A stretch of 64,000 bases of DNA, taken from assembly GCA_903901225.1 (NCBI GenBank), contig CAIUQE010000020.1:5092-69091 (forward strand), read 5' to 3'. Below are positions 1 through 38,398 of the stretch, one piece after another. Both the position numbers and the translations under genes were made by a program. The notes under the pieces were generated by a model. It saw only the letters and a list, made by a program, of their open reading frames with translations, had not been told where the DNA came from and made no database searches. The first letter of the stretch is position 1. Each line of letters begins with the position of its first letter. This stretch comes from Candidatus Omnitrophota bacterium. Its GTDB lineage: Bacteria > Omnitrophota > Gorgyraeia > Zapsychrales > Fredricksoniimonadaceae.

Positions 1-6
1 ATTTTT

Positions 7-930
7 GTGACAGAATTCTTTCCCTTCGGTCGCCTCAATTACATGCCGGAACTTTTACCAACGCTGCAGCACTTGCGCCGGAGAAATGTCGCCATCTACG
101 CGAGCATCGGGTATCCTTACCTGTTAAACCTGTCCGACATGAAGGAAGCAAAATTCAGGGATATGCTGGGACAACTCCTGCAGCTTTATGACAAGATCCT
201 CATCCATACGCCGCCGGGTCTGGAAGATCCCTATTTCGCAAAAACCATATCGTCACCGGGCCCGCAACGGCGTTACCGTGAATTCTTTGACGGGATCAAA
301 GAAAAGATCATCTACACGGGCTATGTCGTGCCCGGCAAGGTATTGAAAGGCACCGCGCCCCTTCCATCGGCAACAACCTCTGGCCAGAGCACGGTCGTCG
401 TCAGCCGCGGTGGCGGCGCGGTCTATCCCAAAGTGATCCTTAACGCCATCCGGGCCCAGGCCCTCCTTGGCAACGCGTATCGCTTCATCATCGCCTGCGG
501 CCCCGCCACATCCGTCGCGGAACAAAAACTTTTTGACCTGCACGTTCGGAAATACGGCACGGGCAATGTCATTTTGCATCGCCATATCCCCAACCTCGGC
601 GAGCTTCTGGCCACCTGTGACGTGTCCGTAAGCCTGGGCGGTTACAACACCGCGGTCCAGTTGATGCGCGCGGGCGCACGGGCGATCATCATCCCGCACC
701 ACATCAAGGACGCGCCCCTCGCCACCACCGACCAGCTGGCACGCGCCCGTCTGATGAAAGAAAAATTCCAAAGCACGGTCATTGACTACGCCGACCTTAC
801 GCCCGTCAAATTGGCGCGCGCCATCGAGAAAAAATGCCGCGCGCCGCGCCCGGGTCAGGCACCAACCGTCTGGTTCGGCGGCGCAACGTCATCAGCAAAC
901 ATCCTCATGAAATACAGGCCGGATAAATAA
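7..930 (+). CDS. GT-B fold glycosyltransferase-like protein (MGT/GT28-like), 5' end may be cut by the window edge; paralog of the next gene
   Basis: Shares FFPFGR..YIPELLP..IYASIGYP..VVVSRGGGAVYPKVI..GGYNT with the C-terminal two thirds of ORF 946-2178; the first in-frame Met lies at the window start, so the true N-terminus is probably upstream. Confidence 0.55.
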   Translation: MTEFFPFGRLNYMPELLPTLQHLRRRNVAIYASIGYPYLLNLSDMKEAKFRDMLGQLLQLYDKILIHTPPGLEDPYFAKTISSPGPQRRYREFFDGIKEKIIYTGYVVPGKVLKGTAPLPSATTSGQSTVVVSRGGGAVYPKVILNAIRAQALLGNAYRFIIACGPATSVAEQKLFDLHVRKYGTGNVILHRHIPNLGELLATCDVSVSLGGYNTAVQLMRAGARAIIIPHHIKDAPLATTDQLARARLMKEKFQSTVIDYADLTPVKLARAIEKKCRAPRPGQAPTVWFGGATSSANILMKYRPDK

Positions 931-945
931 TTACGTAAAAATACA

Positions 946-2178
946 ATGGCGAACCCAAAAAAGATCCTTATCCACTACACGCACAAAGGTACGCTTGGGC
1001 ACACGACCCGCATCCAGAGCCTCTGCCATGAACTTGTCAGGCAATACGGCGCGCGCGTCAAGATCCATGTCCTGCAGGGGGGACTACCCCAGCCGTTCAT
1101 CCGGTTCCCGCGGCAGGTACGGCTGATCCCCATCCCGGCACCTTTTGATTCACGGGCAAGTTTCCGCATCGGTCGGAAGATCCAGAAGAATGACCGCCTC
1201 CGCAGCCATTTTGTCCTGAAAATAGCGCAACGCATCGAGCCCGATGTTTTCCTGACCGAATTCTTCCCCTTCGGACGGCAGGATTACATCCCGGAACTCC
1301 TGCCCGCTCTCCAGGCGTTACACCGCCAGGGCACACGCATTTACGCCAGTATCGGTTACCCCTGTTGCGTTGACCAGATCGACGGGCAGAACAGGGACCT
1401 GGCCGCTGGCCGCGCCGGGATCATCACGCTTTACGACAAGATCTTCATCCACACGCCCGAAGGCCTCGAGAACCGCTATTTCCAGAAGACCCTCCCCACC
1501 CCGGCCCTTCGGCATAACTACGCCAATTTTTACCGTGCGATCGCCCCAAAAACCATTTACACCGGCTACATCGTCCCGGCCAGGCCGGGCAGCACACCGC
1601 GGCGCGCCGCGCTGACACGCCATACGCCCGGAAAATATTCTGTGGTCGTCAGCCGTGGCGGCGGCGCGGTTTACCCGAAGGTCATCATCAATGCCGTCAA
1701 GGCCCAAAAGATCCTCGGAGATAAATACCGCCTTATCATAGCCCTTGGCCCGTCAACCAGCCCGGCGGAACAAAAGGTCTTTCAAATGGTCCTGAAAGAT
1801 CACCCGTCAAGGAACATCGCCATCCTTGACGACATACCGGACCTTCCCTATTTCCTGGAACGCTGCGACACCTCCGTCAGCCTGTGCGGTTACAACACCT
1901 CCGTGCAACTCCTGGGCGCGAGGATCCCCGGCATCGTGGTGCCGTTCGTCAATCCCAATTCACCCTTCCCGTCGAATGAACAGTCCGCGCGCGCCCTGCT
2001 CTTGCGCGACCACGGCGGAAGTTCTGTCCTTCCTTACAACAAAATGACACCCGAAGCCATTGCTGGGACTATCCGTGAGAAATGTGAGAACGGCAGGAAT
2101 GTGTTCAAAAGTCCCGCGGGCTGGTTCAACGGGGCCTCGAACACGGCTGGCTTACTTATGCAAGATGAGCGGCGTTAA
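946..2178 (+). CDS. GT-B fold glycosyltransferase-like protein (full-length paralog)
   Basis: 410-aa ORF; the N-terminal KKILIHYTHKGTLGH resembles the N-terminal Gly-rich nucleotide-sugar site of MurG/MGT-type enzymes; the C-terminal half is homologous to ORF 7-930. Confidence 0.55.
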   Translation: MANPKKILIHYTHKGTLGHTTRIQSLCHELVRQYGARVKIHVLQGGLPQPFIRFPRQVRLIPIPAPFDSRASFRIGRKIQKNDRLRSHFVLKIAQRIEPDVFLTEFFPFGRQDYIPELLPALQALHRQGTRIYASIGYPCCVDQIDGQNRDLAAGRAGIITLYDKIFIHTPEGLENRYFQKTLPTPALRHNYANFYRAIAPKTIYTGYIVPARPGSTPRRAALTRHTPGKYSVVVSRGGGAVYPKVIINAVKAQKILGDKYRLIIALGPSTSPAEQKVFQMVLKDHPSRNIAILDDIPDLPYFLERCDTSVSLCGYNTSVQLLGARIPGIVVPFVNPNSPFPSNEQSARALLLRDHGGSSVLPYNKMTPEAIAGTIREKCENGRNVFKSPAGWFNGASNTAGLLMQDERR

Positions 2179-3148
2179 AATCCTTGAGAAAACCATGGTA
2201 GGCGAAACATCCCGGGCAAGCGGCTGTTGAGCCTTTCTTGATGTGGGCATCACGAGCCGCGAAGAAGGCTTTGGAACAAAAATTATCGTCGTGGATCGAA
2301 CCCGCGGGCGCCATGTAAAGGCAAGGATGGACATCGCCCCGCGACGTTATAAACAGGCACCGGCGGGGTGTCGCGCATTCCCTGATCGCTCCAGTCCCCT
2401 CCTCCACAAGGCGCAGGAGCATCTTGAGCATTTTCGGCTGGAGTGCTTTTACCGGGACACGGGCTTCCTGCTGCAATATCCTCAGGATCTGCGCGCGCAA
2501 CACCGGAAGGATCTCCTCCCCGCGGACCTCCGGCCTTTTTCCAACGGCACCGCGGTGATAATACGCCGGCACGTTCCCTTCAACAACTTTCGGCGTGAAA
2601 CGGAACCCGTGCGCGCGGGCAAGTTCATACACATCAAATAATTCGCGGCAGTTCACCCCGCTCACCGTGAATTTAAGCTCCACATCGAACATCCCGCCAT
2701 AGCGCCCGCTGAGCCGCCGTAATGTCTTCATTGTCTGACGGTAGGCGTCGCGCCCCCGCAGCGCGTCATGGGTCTTTTCCAGTCCATCCACACTGATCCC
2801 GATGCCCATGCCGGCAAGAATGGCCGCGTCCTTCTTCAGGACCCTGTCAATAATATCCGGGAATGCCCCGCTGGAATAAACCCCAAAGGAGCGGATATGT
2901 CGCCGGGCACGCCAGGCCGCGAGGGTTTTCAATATGCCCGCGATATCCGGATGCAGGAACGATTCCCCTCCGGTGATCGATATCCCGTGGATCCGGAACG
3001 ACGCGTGGAGGCTTTTCAACGTTGCCGTTAGCAGCGGAAGGGGTAGCTCATAAAGGCGCTTTTCCCGCCAGATATCGCAGCAGCGGCAACGCAAACGGCA
3101 TTTGTTCGTGACCTCGATGGTCACATCATCGAGACTGGGCTTTGGCAT
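2156..3148 (-). CDS. radical SAM protein with SPASM/twitch-like Cys-rich C-terminus
   Basis: N-terminal CRLRCRCC fits CxxxCxxC; Gly-rich GGESFLH SAM motif; C-terminal C..C..C..CPGC auxiliary-cluster-like cysteines. Confidence 0.75.
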   Translation of the reverse strand: MPKPSLDDVTIEVTNKCRLRCRCCDIWREKRLYELPLPLLTATLKSLHASFRIHGISITGGESFLHPDIAGILKTLAAWRARRHIRSFGVYSSGAFPDIIDRVLKKDAAILAGMGIGISVDGLEKTHDALRGRDAYRQTMKTLRRLSGRYGGMFDVELKFTVSGVNCRELFDVYELARAHGFRFTPKVVEGNVPAYYHRGAVGKRPEVRGEEILPVLRAQILRILQQEARVPVKALQPKMLKMLLRLVEEGTGAIRECATPRRCLFITSRGDVHPCLYMAPAGSIHDDNFCSKAFFAARDAHIKKGSTAACPGCFAYHGFLKDFNAAHLA

Positions 3149-3152
3149 AACT

Positions 3153-4256
3153 TTACACCGTCATGAATTTCCGGCATCCCTCAACAACGCGCAACGCTTT
3201 GTCCTGACTCATGAAGGAATGTATGGGCAAATGCAAGGCCCGCCGATAATACGCATCACTGACGGGGTACTTCCCGCGAGCCACATACCCATGCGCGGAC
3301 ATCAAATGCAGGGGCATATACGGCTTTTGGACAACAATGCCATTATCCGCAAGGAAATCGACGCACGCGTCACGACGATCGCAACAAACCACAAAATTTT
3401 GAGGGACGCTGTCCGCGCCCGCGGGGTCCGTGAATATTTGCAGGCCCTTGATACACCCCAATTCCTTCTCATAAAGCATCTTGATCTTTTTGCGCGACGC
3501 GACGATCTTTTTCAAATGGGTGAATTTCACGCGCAAGGCCACCAAGTCCATGAACGACATCGGAGCGAACCTTTGCCCGAGCTTGAGTAACCCGGGATCG
3601 TTCCGCCAGTCATCCATCCAGCGCCCGATACGCTGGTAAGCCGCCTCATTGCAAACCACCATCCCCCCGCCACCGCCGCACGAAGACAGCGGCTTATAAT
3701 AAGAAAAAGAGAACGCGGCAAAGGCGCCAAAACTGCCGAGCATTTTTCCATTATATGTCGAGCTTTCAGCCTGGCACACATCCTCAATAAGGACGAGCCC
3801 TTTCCTGCGGCAGATCTCCTGCAACGCATCAAGGGCACAAGGCCGTCCAAACATATGCGCCGCGATCACAGCCTTTGTCCTCTTTGTCACGGCGCGGGAT
3901 ACCTGCGCGACATCCAGATTCAGGTCGCGCGCATCCGCATCGACCAGGACCGGCGTCGCCCCCGCGTACACCACCGCCAGCGCCACGGCATGGTACGTCA
4001 GGTTTGGGATGATCACCTCGTCGCCTTTGCCAACCCCGGCCGCCCTCAGGATCATGGCGAGCGCGTCACTGCCGGAGTTCACCGCGAGCGCGCGCTTGAC
4101 GCCGATATACGCGGCAAGATCACGTTCAAATTCCCGGATCAGCGGCTTGATATCGTTCAGCCCCTGCATCGCGCGCAAATACGCCTTCATCTGAGCCGCG
4201 TATTCCGGCGCCAGGGCTTGTTCCACTAGGACTGATTCATAACGGATCTTCGGCAT
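3153..4256 (-). CDS. DegT/DnrJ/EryC1/StrS-family PLP-dependent (sugar) aminotransferase
   Basis: AVNSGSDALAMIL, IIPNLTYHA and SFSYYKPL (Lys-containing PLP motif) are typical of DegT-family enzymes; the alternative start Met at ~4190 would remove the overlap with the next gene. Confidence 0.75.
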   Translation of the reverse strand: MPKIRYESVLVEQALAPEYAAQMKAYLRAMQGLNDIKPLIREFERDLAAYIGVKRALAVNSGSDALAMILRAAGVGKGDEVIIPNLTYHAVALAVVYAGATPVLVDADARDLNLDVAQVSRAVTKRTKAVIAAHMFGRPCALDALQEICRRKGLVLIEDVCQAESSTYNGKMLGSFGAFAAFSFSYYKPLSSCGGGGGMVVCNEAAYQRIGRWMDDWRNDPGLLKLGQRFAPMSFMDLVALRVKFTHLKKIVASRKKIKMLYEKELGCIKGLQIFTDPAGADSVPQNFVVCCDRRDACVDFLADNGIVVQKPYMPLHLMSAHGYVARGKYPVSDAYYRRALHLPIHSFMSQDKALRVVEGCRKFMTV

Positions 4257-5272
4257 GGCATCCTTCCCATGATATCCTGGTCGATACGTTCAATGGCCTC
4301 GCAAAGCCCCAGATAAGCGGAAAAACCCCTGACACGCTTGCCCGGGATTGCGCGCACGGCCAGCCCCGCGTTAAAATTACTCACCTGCCGGTATGTCACG
4401 GCCTTGTTGCCGCAAGCCTTGATAAAACCTTCCAGCGCGCTGAAATAAGCGCGTCCCGATGGCAAGATCAACGGCGCGCTGCCGGAAAGGTCCATCACGT
4501 AAAAATGGCGCCGCACTTTTTCCGGAAAAGATAACAATGTCCAGCTGGGCAGGACCCTGCCCTGCGGGAGGATGACCATATCCCAGGTGCCACGTGCCGG
4601 CGCGCTGTACTCCCGCCCGATCAAACCTTGCCGGCGCTCACGCAATTCCCAGGCACTGGCCTTGCGGTATTCGCGCAGGAACAACGCCGCGGACCGGCGG
4701 TCCCAGTCCTCAAGGAACGCCGGATGCACTTCGATATTCCGGGCACCCAGGCCATCCAGATGCCTGACGTTGGCGAACAAGTCTTGCGCGCCATGCGGAT
4801 AGACGGTCATTGTCGTCGACATAGCGACCCTGGCTTTTTGCAGGACACTGATCGCCCGGCACACACGCTGATAATACCCCGCCCGCGCGCCAGGACGATT
4901 CACCCGCGCCGTGCGCTCATCCCCGTCGGCACCCACTTCAACGTTAACACGGTGTTTCCTGAAGAACGCGGCCTTTGAAGCGTCAAGCAATGTCGCGTTC
5001 GACTGGACAGAAACATACCGGCGCGGGAACGCCGCGCGGACCGCTTTGATCATCTGCCTTGTCCTGTCCCACTCCAGCAAAGGTTCTCCGCCCGAAAGGA
5101 TGAATTCACCCTGCCTTGCCAAACCCGCGCAACGCATCGCGTTGCTGAACACCGCATCAGAGATCACCGCGCGCTGGGTCTTGTGCCTGAAAAAACAGTA
5201 CCCGCAACGGAGATTACATCGGTCCGTCACAAAAAACCAGATATGATTAAGCGGAAATTTTTTTATGGCCAT
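4226..5272 (-). CDS. radical SAM protein
   Basis: CNLRCGYC CxxxCxxC motif and SGGEPLL; paralogous to the next gene. Confidence 0.75.
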   Translation of the reverse strand: MAIKKFPLNHIWFFVTDRCNLRCGYCFFRHKTQRAVISDAVFSNAMRCAGLARQGEFILSGGEPLLEWDRTRQMIKAVRAAFPRRYVSVQSNATLLDASKAAFFRKHRVNVEVGADGDERTARVNRPGARAGYYQRVCRAISVLQKARVAMSTTMTVYPHGAQDLFANVRHLDGLGARNIEVHPAFLEDWDRRSAALFLREYRKASAWELRERRQGLIGREYSAPARGTWDMVILPQGRVLPSWTLLSFPEKVRRHFYVMDLSGSAPLILPSGRAYFSALEGFIKACGNKAVTYRQVSNFNAGLAVRAIPGKRVRGFSAYLGLCEAIERIDQDIMGRMPCRRSVMNQS

Positions 5273-6254
5273 AAGAAAGATGCACCCGTGTCATGAACCG
5301 CATCAGCGGGACGATCTGACGGGTATTGAGATAGTTGCGCCCCATCATCGCGTTCACCATTTCAAAGCCGAACGAAACATGATCGCGATAGGTCCGCCAG
5401 GACGGCCTTTTCCATAAAAGGGCATATCGCCGCCGGTAATACGCGACCATCTGGGGCCGTAACGTCCCGGTCGCCGGGTCCCACAAGCTGAATTTCTTGC
5501 GCGCCTTCCCGGGCAGGCACAGAAAGGCATCACCTAACAGCACATCCCCCGGCGGATGCAGGCTGATATCCATAAGGCCCGCGGGCATGAACTCGCGATC
5601 TTCGCGGGTAAAAAGCATCCGGCGCAATGCCGGTGTCGCAACAATATCCACGTATGCCGCCCTGAAAGCCGCCCGGCGCGCCGCGTCCCAGGGCATGAAC
5701 GCGGCGGGCGTGATATCAACGCACGACAATCCGATGCCTTTCAAAAACCGCAAATTCTCCGCCATACGGGCCACTTCATCAGGATGGACCGTCATGGTGC
5801 AACCGCACGATATCCCCGCGTCGAGCGCCGCGCGGATATTGCGCACAAGGCGGGCGAACATCCCGCGGTCCATCGGCCGTCGCCAGCGGGCTGTTGTTCC
5901 AAGATCCCCGTCTATCCCGAACTCCAGGCCGACGCCCCGGGCGCTCAGCCAGGCAATCTTTGTCCTGTCCAGCATCAGGCCGTTGGTTTGCATGCGCACA
6001 TCGGCGCCGGGGAATCCGGACCGCAGCGCCATCACCAGCTTCTTTACCTTATCCCAGCACATCAATGGCTCTCCACCGCTGATCACGAACGACCGGGGAG
6101 ATCCCCATTCCCGTTTCACCAGCACAAGGAAATTTGCCAGGACCTTCCAGGAAAGGTCATGTTGCCTCTTGTCCCGGAAATAACAATATCCGCACGCCAG
6201 CGGGCAACGTTCGGTCAGGTAGATCACGGCCGAGCGCATACGGATCACCGGCAT
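5247..6254 (-). CDS. radical SAM protein (paralog of 4226-5272)
   Basis: CPLACGYC motif and ISGGEPLM; N-terminal 100 aa align with the previous ORF. Confidence 0.75.
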   Translation of the reverse strand: MPVIRMRSAVIYLTERCPLACGYCYFRDKRQHDLSWKVLANFLVLVKREWGSPRSFVISGGEPLMCWDKVKKLVMALRSGFPGADVRMQTNGLMLDRTKIAWLSARGVGLEFGIDGDLGTTARWRRPMDRGMFARLVRNIRAALDAGISCGCTMTVHPDEVARMAENLRFLKGIGLSCVDITPAAFMPWDAARRAAFRAAYVDIVATPALRRMLFTREDREFMPAGLMDISLHPPGDVLLGDAFLCLPGKARKKFSLWDPATGTLRPQMVAYYRRRYALLWKRPSWRTYRDHVSFGFEMVNAMMGRNYLNTRQIVPLMRFMTRVHLSYGHKKISA

Positions 6255-7066
6255 CTTTCTCTCCCTGACTTTTCAACACGCAACAGATCCGAGAACAAGG
6301 CCAAACGCACGTGGCCCTGATCCCGCAGCAAGGCAAGGAAACGAAAGAATGTTTTGATCGCCGTCATGTCATCCGCGCCCTTGATGGCGCGATGATGGTA
6401 CACAAGGCCGATCACGCCGCGCCCGGCCGCGGCACGGCGCCATTGCGCGATCATGTCACGACTGTCAAACGCCAGCGGGGTCCCGTCAGGGGCATATTTA
6501 TTAAGCGCGACACGGGCGGGAAGGTCAAGAAAAGACCTTCCGGAAAGAGCGGCCTTTTTTCCGGCGGAAAAGATCCTGAATCCCAGGTCTTCGACCGCGT
6601 CAAGTGTCGCCCGGTCATAACCATGGTACGGCGGAATAAATGCCGGCGTGAACATGGCGCCAAACGACCTGTGCATGATCTTCAAGCCAGCACTCATATC
6701 TTTATGTTGACGATCATTAGATCTTCCCGGCCCGAACTCATATTTGGCAACGCCCGCGGCCGCATGGTTCGCATGCTGATACCCGTGCTGGACAATATCC
6801 ACAAGGGCCGGATCGCTCTTTTTGGCGTTCTTCAAAACAACAGCCATGCGTGGTTCGAGGCGCAGCGGAATAACACCATAGATGACAGGCAACCGCAGTT
6901 CTTTCAGAAAACCTGACAATTCAAGGAATACCTCATCATCCGACCAGATATCGTCATCCCGCAGGAAGACGCAGGGCAAAAACATTGCAACTCTGCGCCT
7001 ATCCACCTCACACGCATCAACGATCTTTACCTTGGCATTTCGCCGCTTCGTTGCTAAATTAATCAT
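6245..7066 (-). CDS. NodB/CE4-like polysaccharide deacetylase family protein
   Basis: NodB-like motifs FLRDDDI (TFDD-like), QHGYQHANH (H-x-x-x-H) and IPPYHGY (RPPY-like). Confidence 0.45.
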   Translation of the reverse strand: MINLATKRRNAKVKIVDACEVDRRRVAMFLPCVFLRDDDIWSDDEVFLELSGFLKELRLPVIYGVIPLRLEPRMAVVLKNAKKSDPALVDIVQHGYQHANHAAAGVAKYEFGPGRSNDRQHKDMSAGLKIMHRSFGAMFTPAFIPPYHGYDRATLDAVEDLGFRIFSAGKKAALSGRSFLDLPARVALNKYAPDGTPLAFDSRDMIAQWRRAAAGRGVIGLVYHHRAIKGADDMTAIKTFFRFLALLRDQGHVRLALFSDLLRVEKSGRERCR

Positions 7067-7138
7067 ACGATACGTTCATTTTCCTTCTTTATACGGCCCA
7101 TTGCGGCCTGCTTTGAAAAAGTTCCATGTGATTCTAAC

Positions 7139-8320
7139 ATGCCGCGCAAGGAATATGCCAGTCATTGGTGCCCGGCATCCTTTATATCGGGATCTGTCAT
7201 GAAAACAAGACCAAATGACCCCAATGATCGGGACGAAAGACCGGCAGCCACCCGCCCCGGCGAATTATTGATCTCACTCGGTAATCGCTGCCAGTACCGC
7301 TGCCAATTCTGCGCATATTTAAAAGGCAGGAACCCAAAAGTCCTTTCCGCTTCCGCGTGGATATCCCTGCTGAAAGATGCCCGTAACCTGGGCTTCAAGA
7401 AACTCGAGATCGGCGGCCAGGGAGAGCCCGCTTTATTCAAAGGATTTGTGCGCATCGTGCATGAAGCGCGCGCCCTGGGATTCCGGATAAAGCTCTTAAG
7501 CAATATCCAGCACAAAAAAAATATCCTTGCCATATTACCCGCATTGAGCGAACTGACGGTCAACATGAACGCCCTTGATGAAAAAGGATTCCGCTGCCTG
7601 CACCAGCCGCAAAACCCCGCCTCGTTCAACACCGCCATCGACAACCTGGCTGATGGCGCGCGCCTGATCACTGAAGGAAGATCATCGGCCTTTCTCAATA
7701 TCAGCTATGTCGTTTCAAAAACAACGGCAAGGTCCGTCCTGCTTTTTCCAAAAAAACTTTGGAAGATGCTGCAGCAGCGAACGAACATTCAACACCCTGT
7801 GTATGTTCGCTTCCATCACATCCTGATGGTCCCCAGTAATTATCACCTTTGTCCGGACAGCCGTGACCTGCGGCGCATGATCGTGGCGCTTGATAAGGCC
7901 CAGGATAATGCGTTCCTGATGGCCCATTCCAATATCCGGGACTTCTCGACAGAAACAAAAAAGCTCCTGACTTTTTATAAACTCTGGGGACCATTCACGG
8001 CGGATTCGATCCCCGGCTCAAAAAAACACGCCGCAGCGGGAAAAATATCCCGTCACATCTGGTGCGATGCCGCTGAAAAGATCCTTTTCATTGATTGCGA
8101 CGGCGATGCTTTTGGCTGTTATAATCCGACCAGGACCTTGACCGGCATACCAGCCAGACAGGATGATCTATACCTGGGGAACATTCAGGAAGTCCCGGTA
8201 AGAACAATGCTCCGGCGGGCAAGTAAGATCGGCTGTTTTCATCCTGATATTACCAGGCGATCCTGGAAAGTCTGCGCGGCCTGCGGCCTGAGAACAACAT
8301 GGATGCCACCACACGCCTGA
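7139..8320 (+). CDS. radical SAM protein with SPASM-like C-terminus
   Basis: CQYRCQFC CxxxCxxC motif; C-terminal CDAAE..CDGDAFGC..C..CAAC cysteine cluster. Start uncertain: 7139 or the Met at 7199. Confidence 0.7.
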   Translation: MPRKEYASHWCPASFISGSVMKTRPNDPNDRDERPAATRPGELLISLGNRCQYRCQFCAYLKGRNPKVLSASAWISLLKDARNLGFKKLEIGGQGEPALFKGFVRIVHEARALGFRIKLLSNIQHKKNILAILPALSELTVNMNALDEKGFRCLHQPQNPASFNTAIDNLADGARLITEGRSSAFLNISYVVSKTTARSVLLFPKKLWKMLQQRTNIQHPVYVRFHHILMVPSNYHLCPDSRDLRRMIVALDKAQDNAFLMAHSNIRDFSTETKKLLTFYKLWGPFTADSIPGSKKHAAAGKISRHIWCDAAEKILFIDCDGDAFGCYNPTRTLTGIPARQDDLYLGNIQEVPVRTMLRRASKIGCFHPDITRRSWKVCAACGLRTTWMPPHA

Positions 8321-9150
8321 ATATCCTCCATTACGTCAAGTCAAGAACATCTCCGGGAACAAGCCGCCTGTTGAAGAAATTCTGCTGCCTCAAGCCAAGG
8401 ATCACCGGAAGCCTTGAGATATCCAGCGAATCCACCCAGGGAGCAGGCCGGGATTATGCCCGCCTGGCACTGACCTGCCTGCGCCGTGAACAGGTCATCA
8501 GCCTTTTCGCCGAAGCCGGCCATGCGCGCGCCGCCGTTGAACCCTACATGTTTGATAACCATAAGGACCATTGTTTCGGGATGGGCATCGCGGACTATGA
8601 CGCCACGCGCGACGAACGGCGGATGAAACTGTATAACTACTATCATCTTTCTCTACAGAAAGTCCCCTGGCGCGCCCATATCAGGAAAGTTTGCCATAAG
8701 GCGGGGATCTCCTTGCCGCAAATTGAAAAGGATCTCCTGTATTTCAAAAAAGCGCGGATGTCGGCGGTCGATCTTTATGACAGCGGCAAAGTCGAACTGA
8801 AGGTTTATTTCGGCCCTTTTCTCAGCAGGGATATCACGGGAAAATTCAAAGGACTTTTTAAAAAAAGGACCGTGCTCCGATACAAGGAATTATTATCAAC
8901 CGGCCACCTTCCGGACCTGGTCCTGTTCTGCGCGCGGTATGGCACTCATGGAAGGTCTATAAGGACCGATTTCTGGAACGGCCGGGAACGGCCTCTTGCG
9001 ATCCTCGAAGCATTGGATACGCAAGGCGAAGGACTAAGGTTGTACCATGACCTCGCGGCCATCACCAGCGCATTGCGGCTGACCTTCACATGCGTCGACA
9101 TGGACCAACGCCCAAGGACACAATTTTATTTTGAAATTATAGACTTTTGA
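8299..9150 (+). CDS. hypothetical protein (283 aa); alternating aromatic beta-strand pattern
   Basis: No recognisable motif. Repeated KVYF/LRLYH/FTCVDMD/QFYFEI strand-like segments; sits inside the rSAM cluster and overlaps the upstream gene end by 22 nt. Confidence 0.4.
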   Translation: MDATTRLNILHYVKSRTSPGTSRLLKKFCCLKPRITGSLEISSESTQGAGRDYARLALTCLRREQVISLFAEAGHARAAVEPYMFDNHKDHCFGMGIADYDATRDERRMKLYNYYHLSLQKVPWRAHIRKVCHKAGISLPQIEKDLLYFKKARMSAVDLYDSGKVELKVYFGPFLSRDITGKFKGLFKKRTVLRYKELLSTGHLPDLVLFCARYGTHGRSIRTDFWNGRERPLAILEALDTQGEGLRLYHDLAAITSALRLTFTCVDMDQRPRTQFYFEIIDF

Positions 9151-9196
9151 AAGCGACCTTATGTTCTATTGTCCTGTGTTATAATCAGGCTCTTCT

Positions 9197-10069
9197 ATGG
9201 ACCTTCCCCGCGTGATCTCATCCATCCCTTTTATCCTGATCTGCATAACAGGCGCGCTGACCAGTTATTCGGATATCCGTGAAAAAAAGATCAGGAACAT
9301 CCATTTGTTCATGACAGCTTTTCCCGCCCTGGCGCTCTATGCGGTTTCTTTCTTCACGGCGGGATCCCTATGGCAGGCGCCATTAAGCAGTGCTGTCACC
9401 GCCACAGTGGCGGGCGTATTTTTCTTCAGCATCAACCTTTGGCGCCCCGGGGACGCGAAACTCTTCGTCACATATGCTTTTCTCATGCCGCTCACGGGTT
9501 ATGAACAGGTATTCGCTTTACCGTGCGTCCCTTTGTTCATCAACACATTCCTCATCGGCCTGATCTGCTTTACCCCTTTGTTCCTCTGGTCGGTGCTGAA
9601 GCATCCCAAAACTTTGATCCAGGCAATATTTATGATCAAAGACCCGAAAAACACGCTTATCGCGTTCATGGTCATGATATCCGTATCATGGGCGATCCCT
9701 CATTTATTGGCCATGACTGCGTGGCATATCCAACCCTTCACCCGGTGGATCATCATTTCCACGCTATATTTTCTGATCTTCCGGATGGCATCATACCTGG
9801 AGGAATATCCGCAGATCGTGATCCCCTGCGTTATCATCGGCCTGGGCCTTGGCCTGCGCTGGTCACCGGATTTCTACACGCTGGAACACCTCACCCGCAC
9901 CGTCATGACCCTGTGTGCCTATTCCCTGGGCTTCCAACTGATCCACAACCTGATCCGGCAAACCAGGGACAACAAGGACCGGGTAGCTTTCGCGCCTTTC
10001 CTTTTCGCCGGATGCCTGGCCAGTTACACGCCATTCCTCGGCTGGATGCTGAAGATCTTACACCGATGA
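9197..10069 (+). CDS. peptidase A24 (prepilin peptidase/TadV/CpaA-like) family membrane aspartic peptidase homolog
   Basis: Polytopic membrane protein; SDIREKKIRN matches the first catalytic-Asp motif (D-L-R-x-R-R-I-P-N) and RPGDAKLF matches the second (G-G-D-V-K-L). Its stop overlaps the next start in an ATGA. Confidence 0.55.
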   Translation: MDLPRVISSIPFILICITGALTSYSDIREKKIRNIHLFMTAFPALALYAVSFFTAGSLWQAPLSSAVTATVAGVFFFSINLWRPGDAKLFVTYAFLMPLTGYEQVFALPCVPLFINTFLIGLICFTPLFLWSVLKHPKTLIQAIFMIKDPKNTLIAFMVMISVSWAIPHLLAMTAWHIQPFTRWIIISTLYFLIFRMASYLEEYPQIVIPCVIIGLGLGLRWSPDFYTLEHLTRTVMTLCAYSLGFQLIHNLIRQTRDNKDRVAFAPFLFAGCLASYTPFLGWMLKILHR

Positions 10070-11043
10070 AAAACCCCTCCTCCATCGTCATCGAGATCAC
10101 CGGACAGTGCAACCTGCGCTGCCGCCACTGCACCGGCGCCAGCGCGCGCCGCGCCCGCGTCACATTCGCAACTGTCAAAATGATCATTGATGATGCCAGG
10201 CGCAACAAGGTCACGGCCATCAGGTTCACCGGCGGCGAGCCGCTCCTTCATCCCGAACTCCCGCAGATGCTGGCTTACGCCAAAGAACAAAAAATGTATG
10301 TCCTGCTCAATACCAACGCGACGCTGGCAACACCCGCCTGGCTCAACATCTTTGCGCTCCACGTCGATAATATCCTTGTCTCCCTGCAGGGCTGCGACAG
10401 CGCCTCCGACCGCGACCTGACGCGAACGTCCCTGCCGTTCTCAAAAAAGATCAAAAACATCCTTCTGCTGCGTGACACTGTTCCTGTCGTGCGGCTCGGT
10501 ACGGTCATCACGCGGCAGTTCCTTGACGACGTCCCGCGTTACGCGGCGCTGATCGCGAAGATCCGCCCGTATGCCTGGGAACTCTTCCGCCCGATGAGTA
10601 TCCAGGCGCGCCGCGCGATCCGCCTCAATGCCAGTGATTATCAGTCTCTGGCGACAAAACTTCTGGAGCTGTCACAAGAGGGGCTTAACGTGAAACTCGC
10701 CAACGCCCTGCCTTTTTGCGTCCTGCCGGACCTGAAAGCCGCCTCCAGCATCATGCTCGGCGCTCTATCCGACGACGGGCACACGCGGCTTGTCTGGGAC
10801 GCGCGCGGTTTCTACAAGCCAAGTTACTTTATCGACGAAGATCTTGGAAAGAACATCAAGGTTGCCTGGGCTCATACCTTCCTCAGGAAACTCAGGAAGC
10901 CATCGTTCCTGCCCGCGCGTTGCCGGGCCTGCTCCGTCCTGAAGCAATGTCAGGGCGGCAGCCGTGCTTTGGCCATGGCTGCCAACGGGTCTTATTTTAC
11001 CGCGGATCCTTTGTTCCAGCCCCGCGCTCAGCCCACCGCCTGA
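10066..11043 (+). CDS. radical SAM protein with SPASM-like C-terminus
   Basis: Start at the Met of MKNPSSIVIEITGQCNLRCRHC (internal to ORF 9523-11043, which is an artefactual extension); FTGGEPLL; C-terminal CRACSVLKQC cluster; ATGA overlap with the A24 homolog. Confidence 0.7.
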   Translation: MKNPSSIVIEITGQCNLRCRHCTGASARRARVTFATVKMIIDDARRNKVTAIRFTGGEPLLHPELPQMLAYAKEQKMYVLLNTNATLATPAWLNIFALHVDNILVSLQGCDSASDRDLTRTSLPFSKKIKNILLLRDTVPVVRLGTVITRQFLDDVPRYAALIAKIRPYAWELFRPMSIQARRAIRLNASDYQSLATKLLELSQEGLNVKLANALPFCVLPDLKAASSIMLGALSDDGHTRLVWDARGFYKPSYFIDEDLGKNIKVAWAHTFLRKLRKPSFLPARCRACSVLKQCQGGSRALAMAANGSYFTADPLFQPRAQPTA

Positions 11044-12406
11044 ACACCTCCGCCGCCCAGCCGCCTTCCTCCAGCTTTCCGAAAATATATTCGAACTGAA
11101 AATCAAGGATCTTGAATGCCGATGAACATCGGGTCTTTGACACGACATTATGCTGCAAGGCGTAATTGACCACCGGGCAATACCCCGTCCAGGGGATGAA
11201 CGGCGAGGCATACTGCGCGATATCCGCGCAGGACGCCTGCAAAAGATAAAGCAGCTTGTCGCTGGACATCATGTCCTGATACCGGTCTTGCAGGATATTG
11301 CCAAGCTTGAACATATCGCCCCCGACCATCCGCGCCTCGTCGCACGGGAAGCACCCCCCGTCGGGCATATAGGCCATCTGCGCGCGCCCGGCCCCGCAGG
11401 GATTCATCAGGTCGACGAACATCGGGTCCTTTTTGGCCAGCACCTTCGTAAGGATGACACGGGCCATCCGTTCATGCATCTCAACACCCTTGCGGTTCAA
11501 TTCCAGGATATGCTCCATCGCCACCCGGTAAAATCGCTGGAATGCCTCAGGGCTGTAACCAAGGGCCTCCCAGCCGCACTCCGCGCCACCCATATTATTC
11601 ACCGGACGCAGGGAGATCTGCGTCTGCCCCTGACGGACGTATTCGTCCACGATCTGCCGGGGATGCCGGAGTGAAGCCGCGGTTATCGTCGGCAGGAATG
11701 ATACCTGCCGGCCGAATTTTTTGCTGAATTCCCGCGCCTTGCCGGTCACGACCCGGTAAGTCCCCCGCCCGTTGGGAAGGACACGGTGGCGGTCATGGAT
11801 ATCCGCGGGGCCATCAAGCGAGGTGCAAACTTTAACGTCATTGTCAGCCAGGACGCGCATTTTAGCCTCATCCAGCAGCGTCAGGTTGCTCACAAGGGAG
11901 ACCGTGACGTTCTTGCCGGGGCGGCCCAGACGGCGCGCGCCCTCGATCAGGAATTTTGCCACCGGCCAGTTCACCAGCGGCTCACCGCCCTGCAATTCCA
12001 GCGTGACATGCGGATTGCGGACATCCTCGAGATAACGCAGGACCTGGCGCGCCACCTCCAATGACATATCCCGGCCTTCCGGGACCCTGGCCTGGCAATA
12101 GGAACATTGAAGATTACATCGGGTCGTGACAACAGCGATATGCAGGGATGTGTCGGCAAAGAGGTTGGTATTGACGGAGCGGAAATCGCGGATCAATTGC
12201 CGGACATTATCCGCGTCGGCCACGAGGCCTCTGGATCGGAGCCTCGCGAACAAAGGCGTGGCGCGGGCCAGGCCCAGCGCGTTCAACTGCCGGAATTCAT
12301 CCGGTGCCAGAAAGTCCCAGCCGCACAACCTGTTACTGACAAGATAACGGCCATTGATCCGGCGTGAATTGAAGGGAGGGATGAAAAAATTGTCGGTCTT
12401 TTTCAT
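10997..12406 (-). CDS. radical SAM/SPASM-domain protein (anSME/peptide-maturase-like architecture)
   Basis: True start at MKKTDNFFIP (12406). The upstream 123 codons of the track ORF are Arg/Ser-rich and look like frame noise. CNLQCSYC, LQGGEPLV, and a C-terminal NPCGAG..C..C SPASM-like Cys cluster. Confidence 0.7.
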   Translation of the reverse strand: MKKTDNFFIPPFNSRRINGRYLVSNRLCGWDFLAPDEFRQLNALGLARATPLFARLRSRGLVADADNVRQLIRDFRSVNTNLFADTSLHIAVVTTRCNLQCSYCQARVPEGRDMSLEVARQVLRYLEDVRNPHVTLELQGGEPLVNWPVAKFLIEGARRLGRPGKNVTVSLVSNLTLLDEAKMRVLADNDVKVCTSLDGPADIHDRHRVLPNGRGTYRVVTGKAREFSKKFGRQVSFLPTITAASLRHPRQIVDEYVRQGQTQISLRPVNNMGGAECGWEALGYSPEAFQRFYRVAMEHILELNRKGVEMHERMARVILTKVLAKKDPMFVDLMNPCGAGRAQMAYMPDGGCFPCDEARMVGGDMFKLGNILQDRYQDMMSSDKLLYLLQASCADIAQYASPFIPWTGYCPVVNYALQHNVVSKTRCSSAFKILDFQFEYIFGKLEEGGWAAEVFRRWAERGAGTKDPR

Positions 12407-35461: not shown

Positions 35462-38398
35462 TTACCTGGCTGCCTCAAAGAACGATCGCGGATCATTTAA
35501 AGTTGTTACGCCAAGAACAACCGGCGTGAAACCATCGATCCGTTCTTCGAGCATCGCGGCATCAATGCCAATGTTAAAATTTATCTTCCCGCCAGTTTCC
35601 AGAAGGCGAAGCTTATCAGAATTAAGATCAATACCACCGTTCAAATTATTGGCATCAACGACTGTTTCACTATGCTGCGGCGTTGCGATCTTATTCTTTG
35701 CTCCTCTTCCCCAGACATGTTTTCCAGTTTTAAATTTTATTTCATCAAGATAACTCTCATCACTTGGTCCAGAAAATCTTATCCCGAACGCATTCGACAA
35801 TGCCTGGATCATATTGATTTTCTTTCTTTTCAGATGCGCGCCCGTGCTGCAGCTCTCGGCTATACCTTTGGCATCGGCCTTGACGAATTTGCTTAACATC
35901 CCCGAAGTCAACCGCCGATCCTCCGTTCGCAACGTTTCATCACCATAGTGCCCGAAGTCAATGGACCAGGGATTACCGTGCCCGCCAATGATCACAAACG
36001 ACGCCGGCTCCTTCCCATCCCCCGTTGCGTCAATAAAAGCATCGACCATTTCCTTGACAGAAGCCACTTCATAATACAGGACTGAATAGCCTTCTTTGAT
36101 CAATTGATCGATCGCCGATTCCCTCATAAATGCGGCATTCCGGTCTGATTTGGGATAAATAACAACAGCCCTTCCTTTCGGGGCTTGGGGGGTTGTCGTC
36201 ATTAATTTGTGCTGTAGTTTTCCGGCACTGGCCTGACGGTTATTAAAGCGATTGATCACGCGATTGATGAACAAATGCGATCTGATCTGCGCCGGCCAGG
36301 CTAACGGACGAAGAATATTTAACTCTTGCCAGTGGCCATACTGCAGCAACCTTTGCCATATATTGAAGCCATCTTTCTCCGATCTTTTTGCCAGCTCAAA
36401 CACCAACAATGAAAGTCTTTCTCTAAAATTATCCGTGCCGGATTTAACCCTGTCAGGTGGAGTCGTGCGCGGGAACATGCGCTCAAATTCATATTTAATC
36501 TCATCCATCCCAAAACGTGCATCTCGTATCAATTCTCCCCGATTGTAATACCTTGCGTATACATTCAGATTATTCATAAGATAATTTTTGGCCTCGTCAC
36601 TGCCCGCGTCAACCAAGGCATCCAATATGCGAATCGCCTTCTCCTGACTCAACCTATCTTTAGCAGCATGACTGACAATCCAACCCAAAGACCCAACTTC
36701 CCGAAAAGTTTTATTCCTGAGGGCATTCCTTCCTAATACCTCTATCACAGCATCTCGCGTCTTGCTTTCCAACCGATCCCATATTGAATTTCCATGATAA
36801 CTCAATAGAAAGCCAAGACCATACAACACGTTTTCATCGTTTTCCCTGGCATACTGGAACAACTCACGCGCGATCTCTACAGGAATGTGCCCACGGGAAT
36901 ACATACGTTCTAAATATGAATCAGCTACATCAACTCCCTTTGACACAAGACTGGCCAAAGCCCTAGTGATCAACACCCTGTGCTGACCATGAATGACTAT
37001 GCCCAGATGAAGAATCTCTGAGGCTATGCTCGTGTTGTTCTTACTAATTGCAGGATCTATAATCCCCTGAACATCAGGATCCTGGTACAGACTTAATAGC
37101 GCTGATACGATCTGCGGCGCAAGGCCAGGGCGACCTCTTCCCAAACTTATAAGCGCGTCCACAGTTTCGTAACTGTGGGCTCCTCGCATCAATGCCAGCA
37201 CTTCAGGAGCGTCAATCGAAGGAAATTTAAATCCCGAGGTCCGGCTTCCCGAAACAGGATCAAACTCAACCTCGGCGACTACATTTTTCCCGATATTCTT
37301 TTGCGCCGCATCAACCATCGCCCGGCCAGAAACCCGTTCTTCTTTGACCATCGCCGGGTCATGATGAAACCCGCCGGAGAAATATTTCCGGGGGATGATT
37401 TCCGAGGTTGTTTCATCCTTCTCTTCCTTGATGTAATTAAAAACACCTTTCCGAAACGCCTCCTCATACTGTTGCCAAATCTTGTCCTTGACCTTTTTAT
37501 CCGCCAGGTCAATCCCCGTCACCTTGTTCTTTGCCGCATATACCTGGCCGACCAGGCTCCGCTTCAAGTTGCGCTTGAACCACGTCGACAGGATCATGGC
37601 GTGATAGATCTGCCGCAACGTGCCAAAGTTTTCGCCGTTGTTGACCTCTTTCTCGATCTCAGGCAGAACGATCTCACGCATGACCTGCCGGGGAATGCCC
37701 CTGGCCTCAGCGAAGCCGTCCCGGGCTTTAGAATTATCGGAGTTCTTCCTCATGGACGTGTAATCAGTATCCAGCATGACCTTCAGGTGACTTTTCGCGA
37801 TAAATGCCGTATCGCCGTTCACATAGACAACCGCCTCATCCGGAACGATCCACACCTTGTTAAAAGTATCCAGCGGTATATCCGTCGTGCCGTATTTTTC
37901 AAAAACACGGGCGTAAATTTTCTTCCATACCTCACGGCCCAACGCCTTTTCGGGATACATCATCGATGAGGTCAATTGCTTGAGGATATAATCTTCGGCC
38001 AGAAGATCACGCCCCATTTCCGTAAGGCCAAAGTTGTCCGGGATGATCCTGTCGCCTTCATAAGGAGACAAATTCACCCAAAGCTCATCCTCCGGGACCG
38101 TCAAGGCAGCCAGAAAATACCTGATCAACCTGGTCGATTCCTGTTGCAACGGCACCCCCTGAAGGGCGGAATTTCCGGTATCAATAAGAAAATCAAAGCG
38201 TAATTGATCGGCAGGATAAACTTTCATGCCCTTAAGGACCGCTGGCACGAATGAAACGCTTGGGGTAACCATTGTGCCCGGTTGAGGCAGGATCCTCTCA
38301 CCTGCAACCATCTGGGCATATGACGGCGGGACGCTGGCGGTTATGAAGGCCACCAGCATGAATGACGCGATTACTCTTTTAGTGATTTCTTCCATCAT
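35462..38398 (-). CDS. large secreted protein (978 aa), unknown function; C-terminal region with a His-Gly...Cys arrangement reminiscent of clan-CD cysteine peptidases
   Basis: Signal peptide (FITASVPPSYAQ). Markedly lower GC than the surroundings. C-terminal ASFVIIGGHGNPW ... AESCSTG. No other motif recognised. Confidence 0.45.
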   Translation of the reverse strand: MMEEITKRVIASFMLVAFITASVPPSYAQMVAGERILPQPGTMVTPSVSFVPAVLKGMKVYPADQLRFDFLIDTGNSALQGVPLQQESTRLIRYFLAALTVPEDELWVNLSPYEGDRIIPDNFGLTEMGRDLLAEDYILKQLTSSMMYPEKALGREVWKKIYARVFEKYGTTDIPLDTFNKVWIVPDEAVVYVNGDTAFIAKSHLKVMLDTDYTSMRKNSDNSKARDGFAEARGIPRQVMREIVLPEIEKEVNNGENFGTLRQIYHAMILSTWFKRNLKRSLVGQVYAAKNKVTGIDLADKKVKDKIWQQYEEAFRKGVFNYIKEEKDETTSEIIPRKYFSGGFHHDPAMVKEERVSGRAMVDAAQKNIGKNVVAEVEFDPVSGSRTSGFKFPSIDAPEVLALMRGAHSYETVDALISLGRGRPGLAPQIVSALLSLYQDPDVQGIIDPAISKNNTSIASEILHLGIVIHGQHRVLITRALASLVSKGVDVADSYLERMYSRGHIPVEIARELFQYARENDENVLYGLGFLLSYHGNSIWDRLESKTRDAVIEVLGRNALRNKTFREVGSLGWIVSHAAKDRLSQEKAIRILDALVDAGSDEAKNYLMNNLNVYARYYNRGELIRDARFGMDEIKYEFERMFPRTTPPDRVKSGTDNFRERLSLLVFELAKRSEKDGFNIWQRLLQYGHWQELNILRPLAWPAQIRSHLFINRVINRFNNRQASAGKLQHKLMTTTPQAPKGRAVVIYPKSDRNAAFMRESAIDQLIKEGYSVLYYEVASVKEMVDAFIDATGDGKEPASFVIIGGHGNPWSIDFGHYGDETLRTEDRRLTSGMLSKFVKADAKGIAESCSTGAHLKRKKINMIQALSNAFGIRFSGPSDESYLDEIKFKTGKHVWGRGAKNKIATPQHSETVVDANNLNGGIDLNSDKLRLLETGGKINFNIGIDAAMLEERIDGFTPVVLGVTTLNDPRSFFEAAR

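Follow-up and report, generated by a model that had tools for sequence, protein, structure and literature searches.

Background

Prepilin peptidases are regarded as devoted to the subunits of type IV filaments, and leader removal from peptides that are synthesised ribosomally and modified after translation (RiPPs) is ascribed to serine, cysteine and metallo-proteases. Here, we describe a membrane protein of 290 amino acids (aa) that is encoded beside radical S-adenosylmethionine (rSAM) genes in a 64,000-nucleotide stretch of a Candidatus Omnitrophota bacterium genome (assembly GCA_903901225.1, contig CAIUQE010000020.1; the whole stretch is hereafter the window). We consider it probable that this protein is an A24-type intramembrane peptidase with two catalytic Asp residues, from a clade that is dedicated to the maturation of HxsA3-like peptides by rSAM enzymes and has departed from type IV filament systems.

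Among the closest described systems is HXS (HxsABCD), a four-gene antiphage system found to 99.7% in Pseudomonadota, whose effector HxsA requires N-terminal processing that depends on HxsB, HxsC and HxsD; the protease responsible is unidentified, also in the E. coli system, and in proteobacterial loci HxsA carries a Sec-type signal peptide and no peptidase gene is present (PMC13128918). The NCBIfam models are TIGR03976-03979 for HXS and NF038309 for HxsA3. With this system the locus in the window has in common an HxsB orthologue, which scores under the model cut-off. Its relatives combine HxsD and HxsB with a small His-rich precursor that weakly matches HxsA3, and clostridial relatives carry a bona fide HxsA3-HxsD-HxsC-HxsB set. 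Unlike HXS, the relatives of this locus pair a dedicated A24 peptidase with a class III-like signal on the precursor, and the window itself is without HxsA, HxsC and HxsD by model cut-offs, its HxsB-like gene forming part of a cluster with 12 or more members.

Among A24 peptidases (PF01478), the protein resembles those of the TadV/CpaA and FlaK/PibD type in being polytopic and without an N-terminal methyltransferase domain, in the placing of its first Asp at the end of helix 1 in D-x-x-x-K/R-I-x-N and of its second in G-D-x-K-L some 60 residues on, in its C-terminal PF(A/G)P motif and in its likely substrate, which has a hydrophobic helix behind a hydrophilic leader with Gly as its last residue. 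In contrast to these enzymes, its clade is linked to rSAM maturases and not to pilins, assembly ATPases or platform proteins, has an insertion of ~130 aa before the last helix and GD in place of GxGD, and scores weakly against PF01478. Class III signal peptides, the substrates of dedicated prepilin peptidases that cut them at the cytoplasmic face, comprise 6-26 aa of hydrophilic leader, the last of them Gly, and then ~21 mainly hydrophobic residues with Glu at position 5; in archaea, the sugar-binding proteins of the PibD-dependent bindosome carry such signals and are A24 substrates outside filaments (PMC4471445). The candidates described here would likewise be class III-signal proteins other than filament subunits. 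Bindosome substrates are large solute-binding proteins that need a type IV filament-like assembly, whereas our candidates are rSAM-modified peptides of about 80-140 aa with no assembly machinery nearby.

A protease inside a cluster of rSAM/SPASM peptide-modifying genes, here accompanied by a protein of PagF-like fold, is also the arrangement of RiPP leader-protease loci, reviewed in 2023 without the terms aspartic, A24 or prepilin and with M50 metalloproteases as the intramembrane proteases (PMC10885120). In the library covered by our full-text literature searches, we met with no paper tying A24 or prepilin peptidases to Hxs or RiPPs. The A24 family and Hxs-type rSAM maturation are each known, and it is their combination that, on comparative-genomic support, appears to be new.

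Family membership of the 290-aa protein

The genes at the centre of the analysis are:

9197-10069, + strand: A24-like membrane protein with D26 and D86 as candidate catalytic residues, a member of the 'W..GDAKLF' clade linked to rSAM and Hxs genes
10066-10069, + strand: ATGA, in which the stop of the peptidase gene and the start of the rSAM gene overlap, read directly in the sequence
10066-11043, + strand: 325-aa rSAM enzyme with a SPASM-like C-terminal domain (PF04055, 3.6e-17; Fer4_12)

A first-pass annotation, made from the letters of the window alone, had proposed a 290-aa prepilin peptidase homologue translationally coupled to a SPASM rSAM enzyme. The open reading frame (ORF) encodes a polytopic membrane protein of that length, and the junction reads as described, with the TGA stop of the peptidase gene (10067-10069) overlapping the ATG of the rSAM gene (10066-10068). 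The two motifs around the candidate catalytic Asp residues, SDIREKKIRN (D26) and RPGDAKLF (D86), are not chance resemblances: in an alignment of 28 family members 90% or more of the sequences share D26, and the invariant positions include the whole of GDAKLF (G85, D86, A87, K88, L89 and F90) as well as I32, N34, F118, W165, R262, G272 and F280. Both Asp positions and their flanking motifs stay invariant or nearly so in members at 25-30% identity, from loci with and without a precursor gene.

Membership of the A24 family is assigned because homologues of the window protein match PF01478, and not through a match of its own. A word-indexed search of 5.8 billion proteins yielded 31 homologues, mostly from metagenome-assembled genomes of Omnitrophota, many of which carry a precomputed PF01478 match; scanned individually, 25 of 28 matched that model at E<=0.01. 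The orthologue P0002, 58% identical to the window protein and of the same length, reached 28.1 bits, where the gathering score is 26.5, in a match that extends over positions 3-102 of the 104 in the model. Five further homologues re-scanned individually scored 28.4-36.6 bits (28.4 for the archaeal and 36.6 for the clostridial member), so that six in all lie above the gathering score, in matches spanning almost the full model. On these homologies, we conclude at the level of sequence, though not of structure, that the 290-aa protein is a divergent member of the A24 family. CPBP and rhomboid, the families that the first-pass annotation had named as the competing assignments, matched in no scan.

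In E. coli GspO, PF01478 spans residues 82-190 and both Asp residues fall at the same profile offsets as in the clade, a correspondence in profile coordinates and not in structure. Most direct alignments to GspO were uninformative. Pairwise alignments aligned both Asp motifs together for the clostridial member only; hhalign of the family against the single GspO sequence aligned the FAPF/FGPW motif alone, at a probability <1%; jackhmmer from GspO into the loci gave no match; and among PDB sequences, profile searches from the family alignment and from the clostridial member retrieved nothing meaningful. The AlphaFold2 (AF2) model of the window protein (predicted local distance difference test score, pLDDT, 85.9) is all-helical with about 10 helices, D26 lying at the end of predicted helix 1 (3-29) and D86 opening the fourth (84-96). 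The C-terminal PFAPFL motif is conserved in the clade and aligns with FGPWL of GspO, and the clade-specific insertion that precedes the PFAPFL helix contributes several helices.

Two-way linkage to rSAM and Hxs genes

Members of the clade are publicly named 'prepilin peptidase', 'Flp pilus assembly protein protease CpaA' or hypothetical. These names, motifs (D..K/R-I-x-N and GD.KL) that are those of the prepilin peptidase family, and the Tad cassettes reported for Omnitrophota (10.64898/2026.06.07.730766) would all suit an ordinary Flp/Tad or type IV prepilin peptidase of the TadV/CpaA kind, placed beside rSAM genes by chance and acting on pilins encoded elsewhere. Genomic neighbourhoods argue against such an enzyme. 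An exhaustive hidden Markov model (HMM) search of 1.84 billion representative proteins found 1,929 clade members with a threshold of E<=1e-3 and 119 with one of E<=1e-30, and rSAM genes adjoin the clade in Omnitrophota, bacteria of the candidate phyla radiation (CPR), DPANN archaea and Clostridia. At six loci fetched by exact protein identity, every orthologue sits inside an rSAM-rich cluster, with 4-12 ORFs bearing the rSAM Cys motif within ±10 kb, along with genes for DegT, MBOAT, GDSL, DUF2334, carbamoyltransferase and PMT-type GT-C proteins; no pilins, traffic ATPase or platform protein are among the called genes of loci L001-L006. Scanning 38 larger ORFs across the 64 kb of the window, with small ORFs screened by motif and HMM only, likewise found no pilin, Tad or secretion genes, in agreement with the first-pass annotation.

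Sampling one genome per GTDB species with the pattern W[RKA][GPA]GDAKLF gave 80 loci; with the window and the identity look-up loci included, the Omnitrophota-type set comprises 37 distinct loci, and 45 loci come from other phyla. A small HxsA3-like precursor gene lies within 10 kb in 18 of the 37, accompanied in 16 of these 18 by HxsD, so that the small ORFs with class III-like signals that the first-pass annotation had proposed to look for near rSAM genes do occur in related genomes, although none was found in the window. Markers for HxsB, HxsC, HxsD or HxsA are present at 32 of the 45 loci of other phyla (Saccharibacteria and other CPR, Woesearchaeota and other archaea, Clostridia, Poribacteria, Spirochaetes and Myxococcota), where an HxsC-like rSAM gene often overlaps the peptidase gene by 1-4 bp; in CPR loci it is the rSAM-then-A24 junction that overlaps to this extent. 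A Clostridiaceae operon encodes, in order, a 295-aa protein, HxsA3 (NF038309, 103.8 bits against a cut-off of 65), HxsD (61.2 against 50), an A24-like protein of 339 aa (PF01478, 36.6 bits), HxsC (324.3 against 267.9) and HxsB (511.2 against 370). The Omnitrophota operon runs through HxsD, HxsB, a small ORF, a 230-aa Cys-rich protein and a GT28-like glycosyltransferase, and converges on the pair of rSAM and A24 genes.

The association also holds from the side of the precursor. JGI metagenome loci were picked by the precursor pattern only (n=61), and 21 of them extended at least 4 kb downstream; an A24-like ORF, scoring 121-309 bits against the family HMM, was present 1.1-7.7 kb away in 18 of the 21, and six shorter contigs end within a partial A24-like copy. 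The linkage is therefore mutual. Because it runs in both directions and across phyla, and with a multi-helix insertion of ~130 aa that the 225-aa GspO lacks, an ordinary pilin peptidase appears very improbable.

Several conserved proteins of the related loci fall outside the named families. In many Omnitrophota loci, the gene for a conserved Cys-rich protein of 230-246 aa without any family match separates those for the precursor and the glycosyltransferase (for example L004, 13048-13740, - strand; L006, 15273-16013, - strand), and no homologue was found in the window. In one Omnitrophota subclade, HxsD and HxsB are separated by a gene for a conserved protein of 73-85 aa (MYPFLQK…FLNYLIYLER), at L011 (ORF from 3455, - strand), L013, L015, L022, L027, L034 and L037. 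CPR loci encode a conserved soluble protein of 67-72 aa (…YQSQEH.EVLGY…LLPEAKYY…) directly upstream of the pair of HxsC-like rSAM and A24 genes (L042, 8819-9037, + strand; L044, 8832-9035, + strand); it lacks a hydrophobic segment and may serve as a chaperone or as a precursor of another kind.

Precursor peptides in related loci

The small precursor ORFs of Omnitrophota loci encode proteins of 81-143 aa whose match to HxsA3 is weak (E about 1e-4). They begin with a Lys-rich leader of median length 29 aa that ends in ...[FLM][ILM]KDE[DSGNAE]G, with Gly at -1 in all 91 matches, and its ...FLKDESG| form presumably resembles the leaders of Flp prepilins. Behind the Gly stand Phe at +1 (51/54), V/I, any residue, Lys and Glu at +5 (41/54), followed by ILK[VI]GLxT[VI]aaLG and a variable tail rich in His, Thr and Asn that often ends in TTH[TS]SY. 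An HMM built from these Omnitrophota precursors also detects the His-Xaa-Ser repeat proteins beside A24 genes of Clostridia, CPR and archaea, which have leaders of the form ...F[LM]x[DES]E[ED]G-x-[IV]-[SDN]-[KR]. In these features, the precursors match the published definition of a class III (prepilin-like) signal (PMC4471445). Several loci encode two HxsA3-like precursors that differ in their C-terminal cores: L037 (3385-3816 and 11675-12088), L038 (3379-3795 and 9251-9520), L127, L130 and L133.

These precursors bear on a second explanation, in which the A24 fold would serve a role other than proteolysis, as a membrane anchor or scaffold for rSAM enzymes or in export or flipping of the product, and the Asp residues are kept for binding. 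Clusters of the window type contain no recognisable precursor, overlaps between start and stop codons recur with genes for soluble rSAM enzymes, the clade has an extra C-terminal multi-helix module, and the canonical GxGD is shortened to GD, all of which would be compatible with such a role. Set against this are the near invariance of both Asp residues and their motifs at 25-30% identity, whether or not a precursor is encoded nearby, and the presence in the partner precursors of the very feature that A24 enzymes cleave, an invariant Gly ahead of a hydrophobic helix. We regard a non-proteolytic role as unlikely, if clearly less so than the ordinary pilin peptidase.

The coupled rSAM gene

The 325-aa product of the coupled gene is an rSAM enzyme, as the first-pass annotation had it, but the SPASM part of that description was too definite. 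Its cysteines lie in CX3CX2C at 15-22, at C218 and in C286-X2-C289-X5-C295, with Ser in place of the fourth Cys of the C-terminal motif; it does not match the Pfam SPASM model, but aligns over nearly its full length with the SPASM families NirJ2 and GeoRSP, all scores being under the cut-offs. The SPASM-type CX2CX5CX3C is intact in the L004 and L006 orthologues, and its last Cys is Ser in the window (10918-10962, residues 285-299) and in L001, a substitution suggesting that, where the gene cluster is of the precursor-less type, an auxiliary Fe-S cluster of the enzyme has been altered or lost. An orthologous rSAM gene stands directly downstream of the A24 gene in L004, L006, L020, L021, L023, L024, L032 and L041, and overlaps it by 4 bp in L004 and, as called, by 25 bp in L006. 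The stop/start overlap fits co-production of the two proteins, perhaps in a physical complex at the membrane. At its 3' end, the coupled gene shares 47 bp (10997-11043) with the convergent HxsB-like gene.

An identity of the coupled enzyme as HxsC was considered and is not supported, its similarity to the HxsC-like rSAMs beside A24 genes in CPR loci amounting to only 40-51 bits by BLAST. The best HxsC (TIGR03977) score in the window, 42 bits against a cut-off of 267.9, belongs to a different ORF (5247-6254).

The gene cluster in the window

Between positions 1 and 13,700 no intergenic gap exceeds ~75 bp, and the cluster itself occupies 1-12,406. Besides the coupled pair it contains:

7-930, + strand: GT28-C-type glycosyltransferase, truncated where the window begins (its full length on the contig is 408 aa)
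946-2178, + strand: GT28-C-type glycosyltransferase
2156-3148, - strand: rSAM enzyme with a weak SPASM signal
3153-4256, - strand: DegT/DnrJ/EryC1-family pyridoxal phosphate-dependent aminotransferase (PF01041, 2.5e-77), 65-71% identical in L001, L003 and L004
4226-5272 and 5247-6254, - strand: two paralogous rSAM genes resembling peptide-modifying maturases, with orthologous pairs in L001, L003, L004 and L006
6245-7066, - strand: DUF2334/polysaccharide-deacetylase-like protein, recurring in related clusters
7139-8320, + strand: 393-aa rSAM/SPASM enzyme (PF04055, 1.3e-8; PF13186, 22.8 bits against a cut-off of 21.5), first gene of the + strand operon
8299-9150, + strand: 283-aa protein of predicted ABBA (PT-barrel) fold, immediately preceding the peptidase gene and sharing its operon
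10997-12406, - strand: 469-aa HxsB orthologue (TIGR03978, 339.6 bits against a cut-off of 370), converging on the coupled rSAM gene

The rSAM complement is thus the HxsB orthologue and five others. Although the HxsB-like protein falls short of the TIGR03978 cut-off, it is 53% identical (496 bits) to HxsB of L004, whose score of 377.9 exceeds it. The SPASM and SPASM-like rSAMs of the window resemble the PapB, DynA, YhhB and HxsB maturases, all under the equivalog cut-offs, and the gene at 7139-8320 may start internally, being called elsewhere as 373 aa. On the 72,750-bp contig, which occurs in samples ERZ1426696 and ERZ1426618, five further complete genes are called upstream of the first full gene of the window; they encode proteins of 520 and 396 aa with an Asn-synthase-like protein between them, then ApbA and the 408-aa glycosyltransferase. 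A 38-aa fragment lies at the contig end. PADLOC returned only generic matches to a viperin-like rSAM core, and we therefore assign the cluster to no defence system.

The 283-aa protein has no Pfam or NCBIfam match and only 12 homologues among 5.8 billion proteins. Its AF2 model (pLDDT 88.9) shows five alpha-alpha-beta-beta repeats, and a Foldseek search of the PDB with this model ranked PagF first (6pgn, E 7.9e-8, TM 0.60), followed by DciF, KgpF, PirF and PatF, with DMATS and NphB lower. We predict an ABBA prenyltransferase fold closest to the cyanobactin-type peptide prenyltransferases. A second, more distant paralogue family, of 282 aa, adjoins the A24 gene in L004 (9044-9892).

The composition of the cluster invites a third explanation, that its product is not a peptide but a modified amino-sugar, glycolipid or cell-envelope glycan, and that the peptidase matures a membrane protein of this pathway or is a passenger. 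It could draw on the DegT aminotransferase, the two GT28-type glycosyltransferases and the DUF2334/deacetylase-like gene, on the MBOAT, GDSL, carbamoyltransferase and PMT-type GT-C genes in the clusters of relatives, and on the failure to find a precursor gene in the window cluster. However, the HxsB orthologue, the PapB- and DynA-like rSAM maturases and the peptide-type prenyltransferase fold indicate a peptide substrate, and in relatives the glycosyltransferase gene shares an operon with the precursor gene and directly follows it (in L004 and L006, downstream of both the precursor and the 230-aa protein), which suggests glycosylation of the peptide instead. We give a non-peptide product about the same small chance as a non-proteolytic role of the peptidase.

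The remainder of the window is housekeeping in character (biotin synthesis, ACC, RlmN, deoxyhypusine synthase and others). It includes a carbamoyltransferase gene (PF02543/PF16861; 29518-31350, - strand) 17 kb from the cluster, of the same family as those inside the A24/rSAM clusters of L005 and L006, and two large ORFs without a Pfam match, at 35462-38398 (- strand, 978 aa) and 41716-44238 (- strand, 840 aa), the former in a stretch of low GC content (0.48-0.53 against about 0.58 elsewhere).

Proposed mechanism

We propose that the 290-aa protein is the leader peptidase of a RiPP-like pathway, a role that we infer from homology, motif conservation and genomic linkage in both directions. In the fuller systems, the precursor would be built of three parts: a Lys-rich cytoplasmic leader with ...[FLM][ILM]KDE[DS]G at its end, a hydrophobic helix with Phe at +1 and Glu at +5, and a C-terminal core rich in His, Thr and Asn. 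HxsD, HxsB and the other rSAM and tailoring enzymes would act on it in the cytoplasm, the helix would then enter the membrane, and at the cytoplasmic face the A24 enzyme would cut behind the invariant Gly, in the manner of prepilin peptidases acting on class III signals, leaving the modified peptide to be released or anchored outside the cell. In the genome analysed here, the peptidase most likely acts on a precursor encoded elsewhere in the genome.

Several observations weigh against this proposal. The window protein itself matches no Pfam or NCBIfam model, even at E<=10, and the Gly at -3 of the canonical GxGD is absent, the motif being reduced to GD (W-R-P-G-D in the window, W-R-G-G-D in the family consensus). 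No Pfam Flp or pilin model matches the precursors, whose residues +2 to +6 are polar, so that the hydrophobic tract starts later than in pilins. The order of events is speculative, since rSAM enzymes are cytoplasmic and the core would end up outside the cell. The leader peptidase for a substrate of the G|F..E type that the first-pass annotation had suggested finds its precursors in relatives, through HxsA3-like genes and the linkage seen from the precursor side, but not at its own locus. Searches of the window by tblastn, a G[FM..]xxxE-plus-hydrophobic scan, an HxS-density scan, hmmsearch --max, a relaxed DE.G scan and clustering of small ORFs across loci found no HxsA-like precursor in its 64 kb or at the locus of its closest relative, L001; six-frame jackhmmer found no HxsD at either; the clustering revealed no conserved small ORF in them; and no complete small genes are called in the ~5 kb upstream of the window on the full contig. 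Lacking precursor, HxsD and an rSAM at the level of HxsC, the window thus contains a derived version of the cluster from which the precursor is missing.

Implications

Beyond this locus, we see an even chance that A24 intramembrane aspartyl peptidases are widespread and unrecognised leader peptidases for rSAM-modified peptides, from Clostridia to CPR, DPANN and Omnitrophota, and that each, encoded at the locus of its substrate, cuts HxsA3-type precursors with a class III signal after an invariant Gly, once these have been modified in the cytoplasm and inserted into the membrane. If so, they would constitute a new class of protease in peptide natural-product biosynthesis and a new route for the export and processing of rSAM-modified peptides. 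They are candidates for the processing step in the HxsA3-type relatives of the HXS antiphage system, and would put a name to the processing protease of one branch of that family. In Omnitrophota, the module would have expanded into clusters with many rSAM genes together with prenyltransferase and glycosyltransferase genes, and the genomes of these uncultured bacteria hold large unexplored clusters of this composition.

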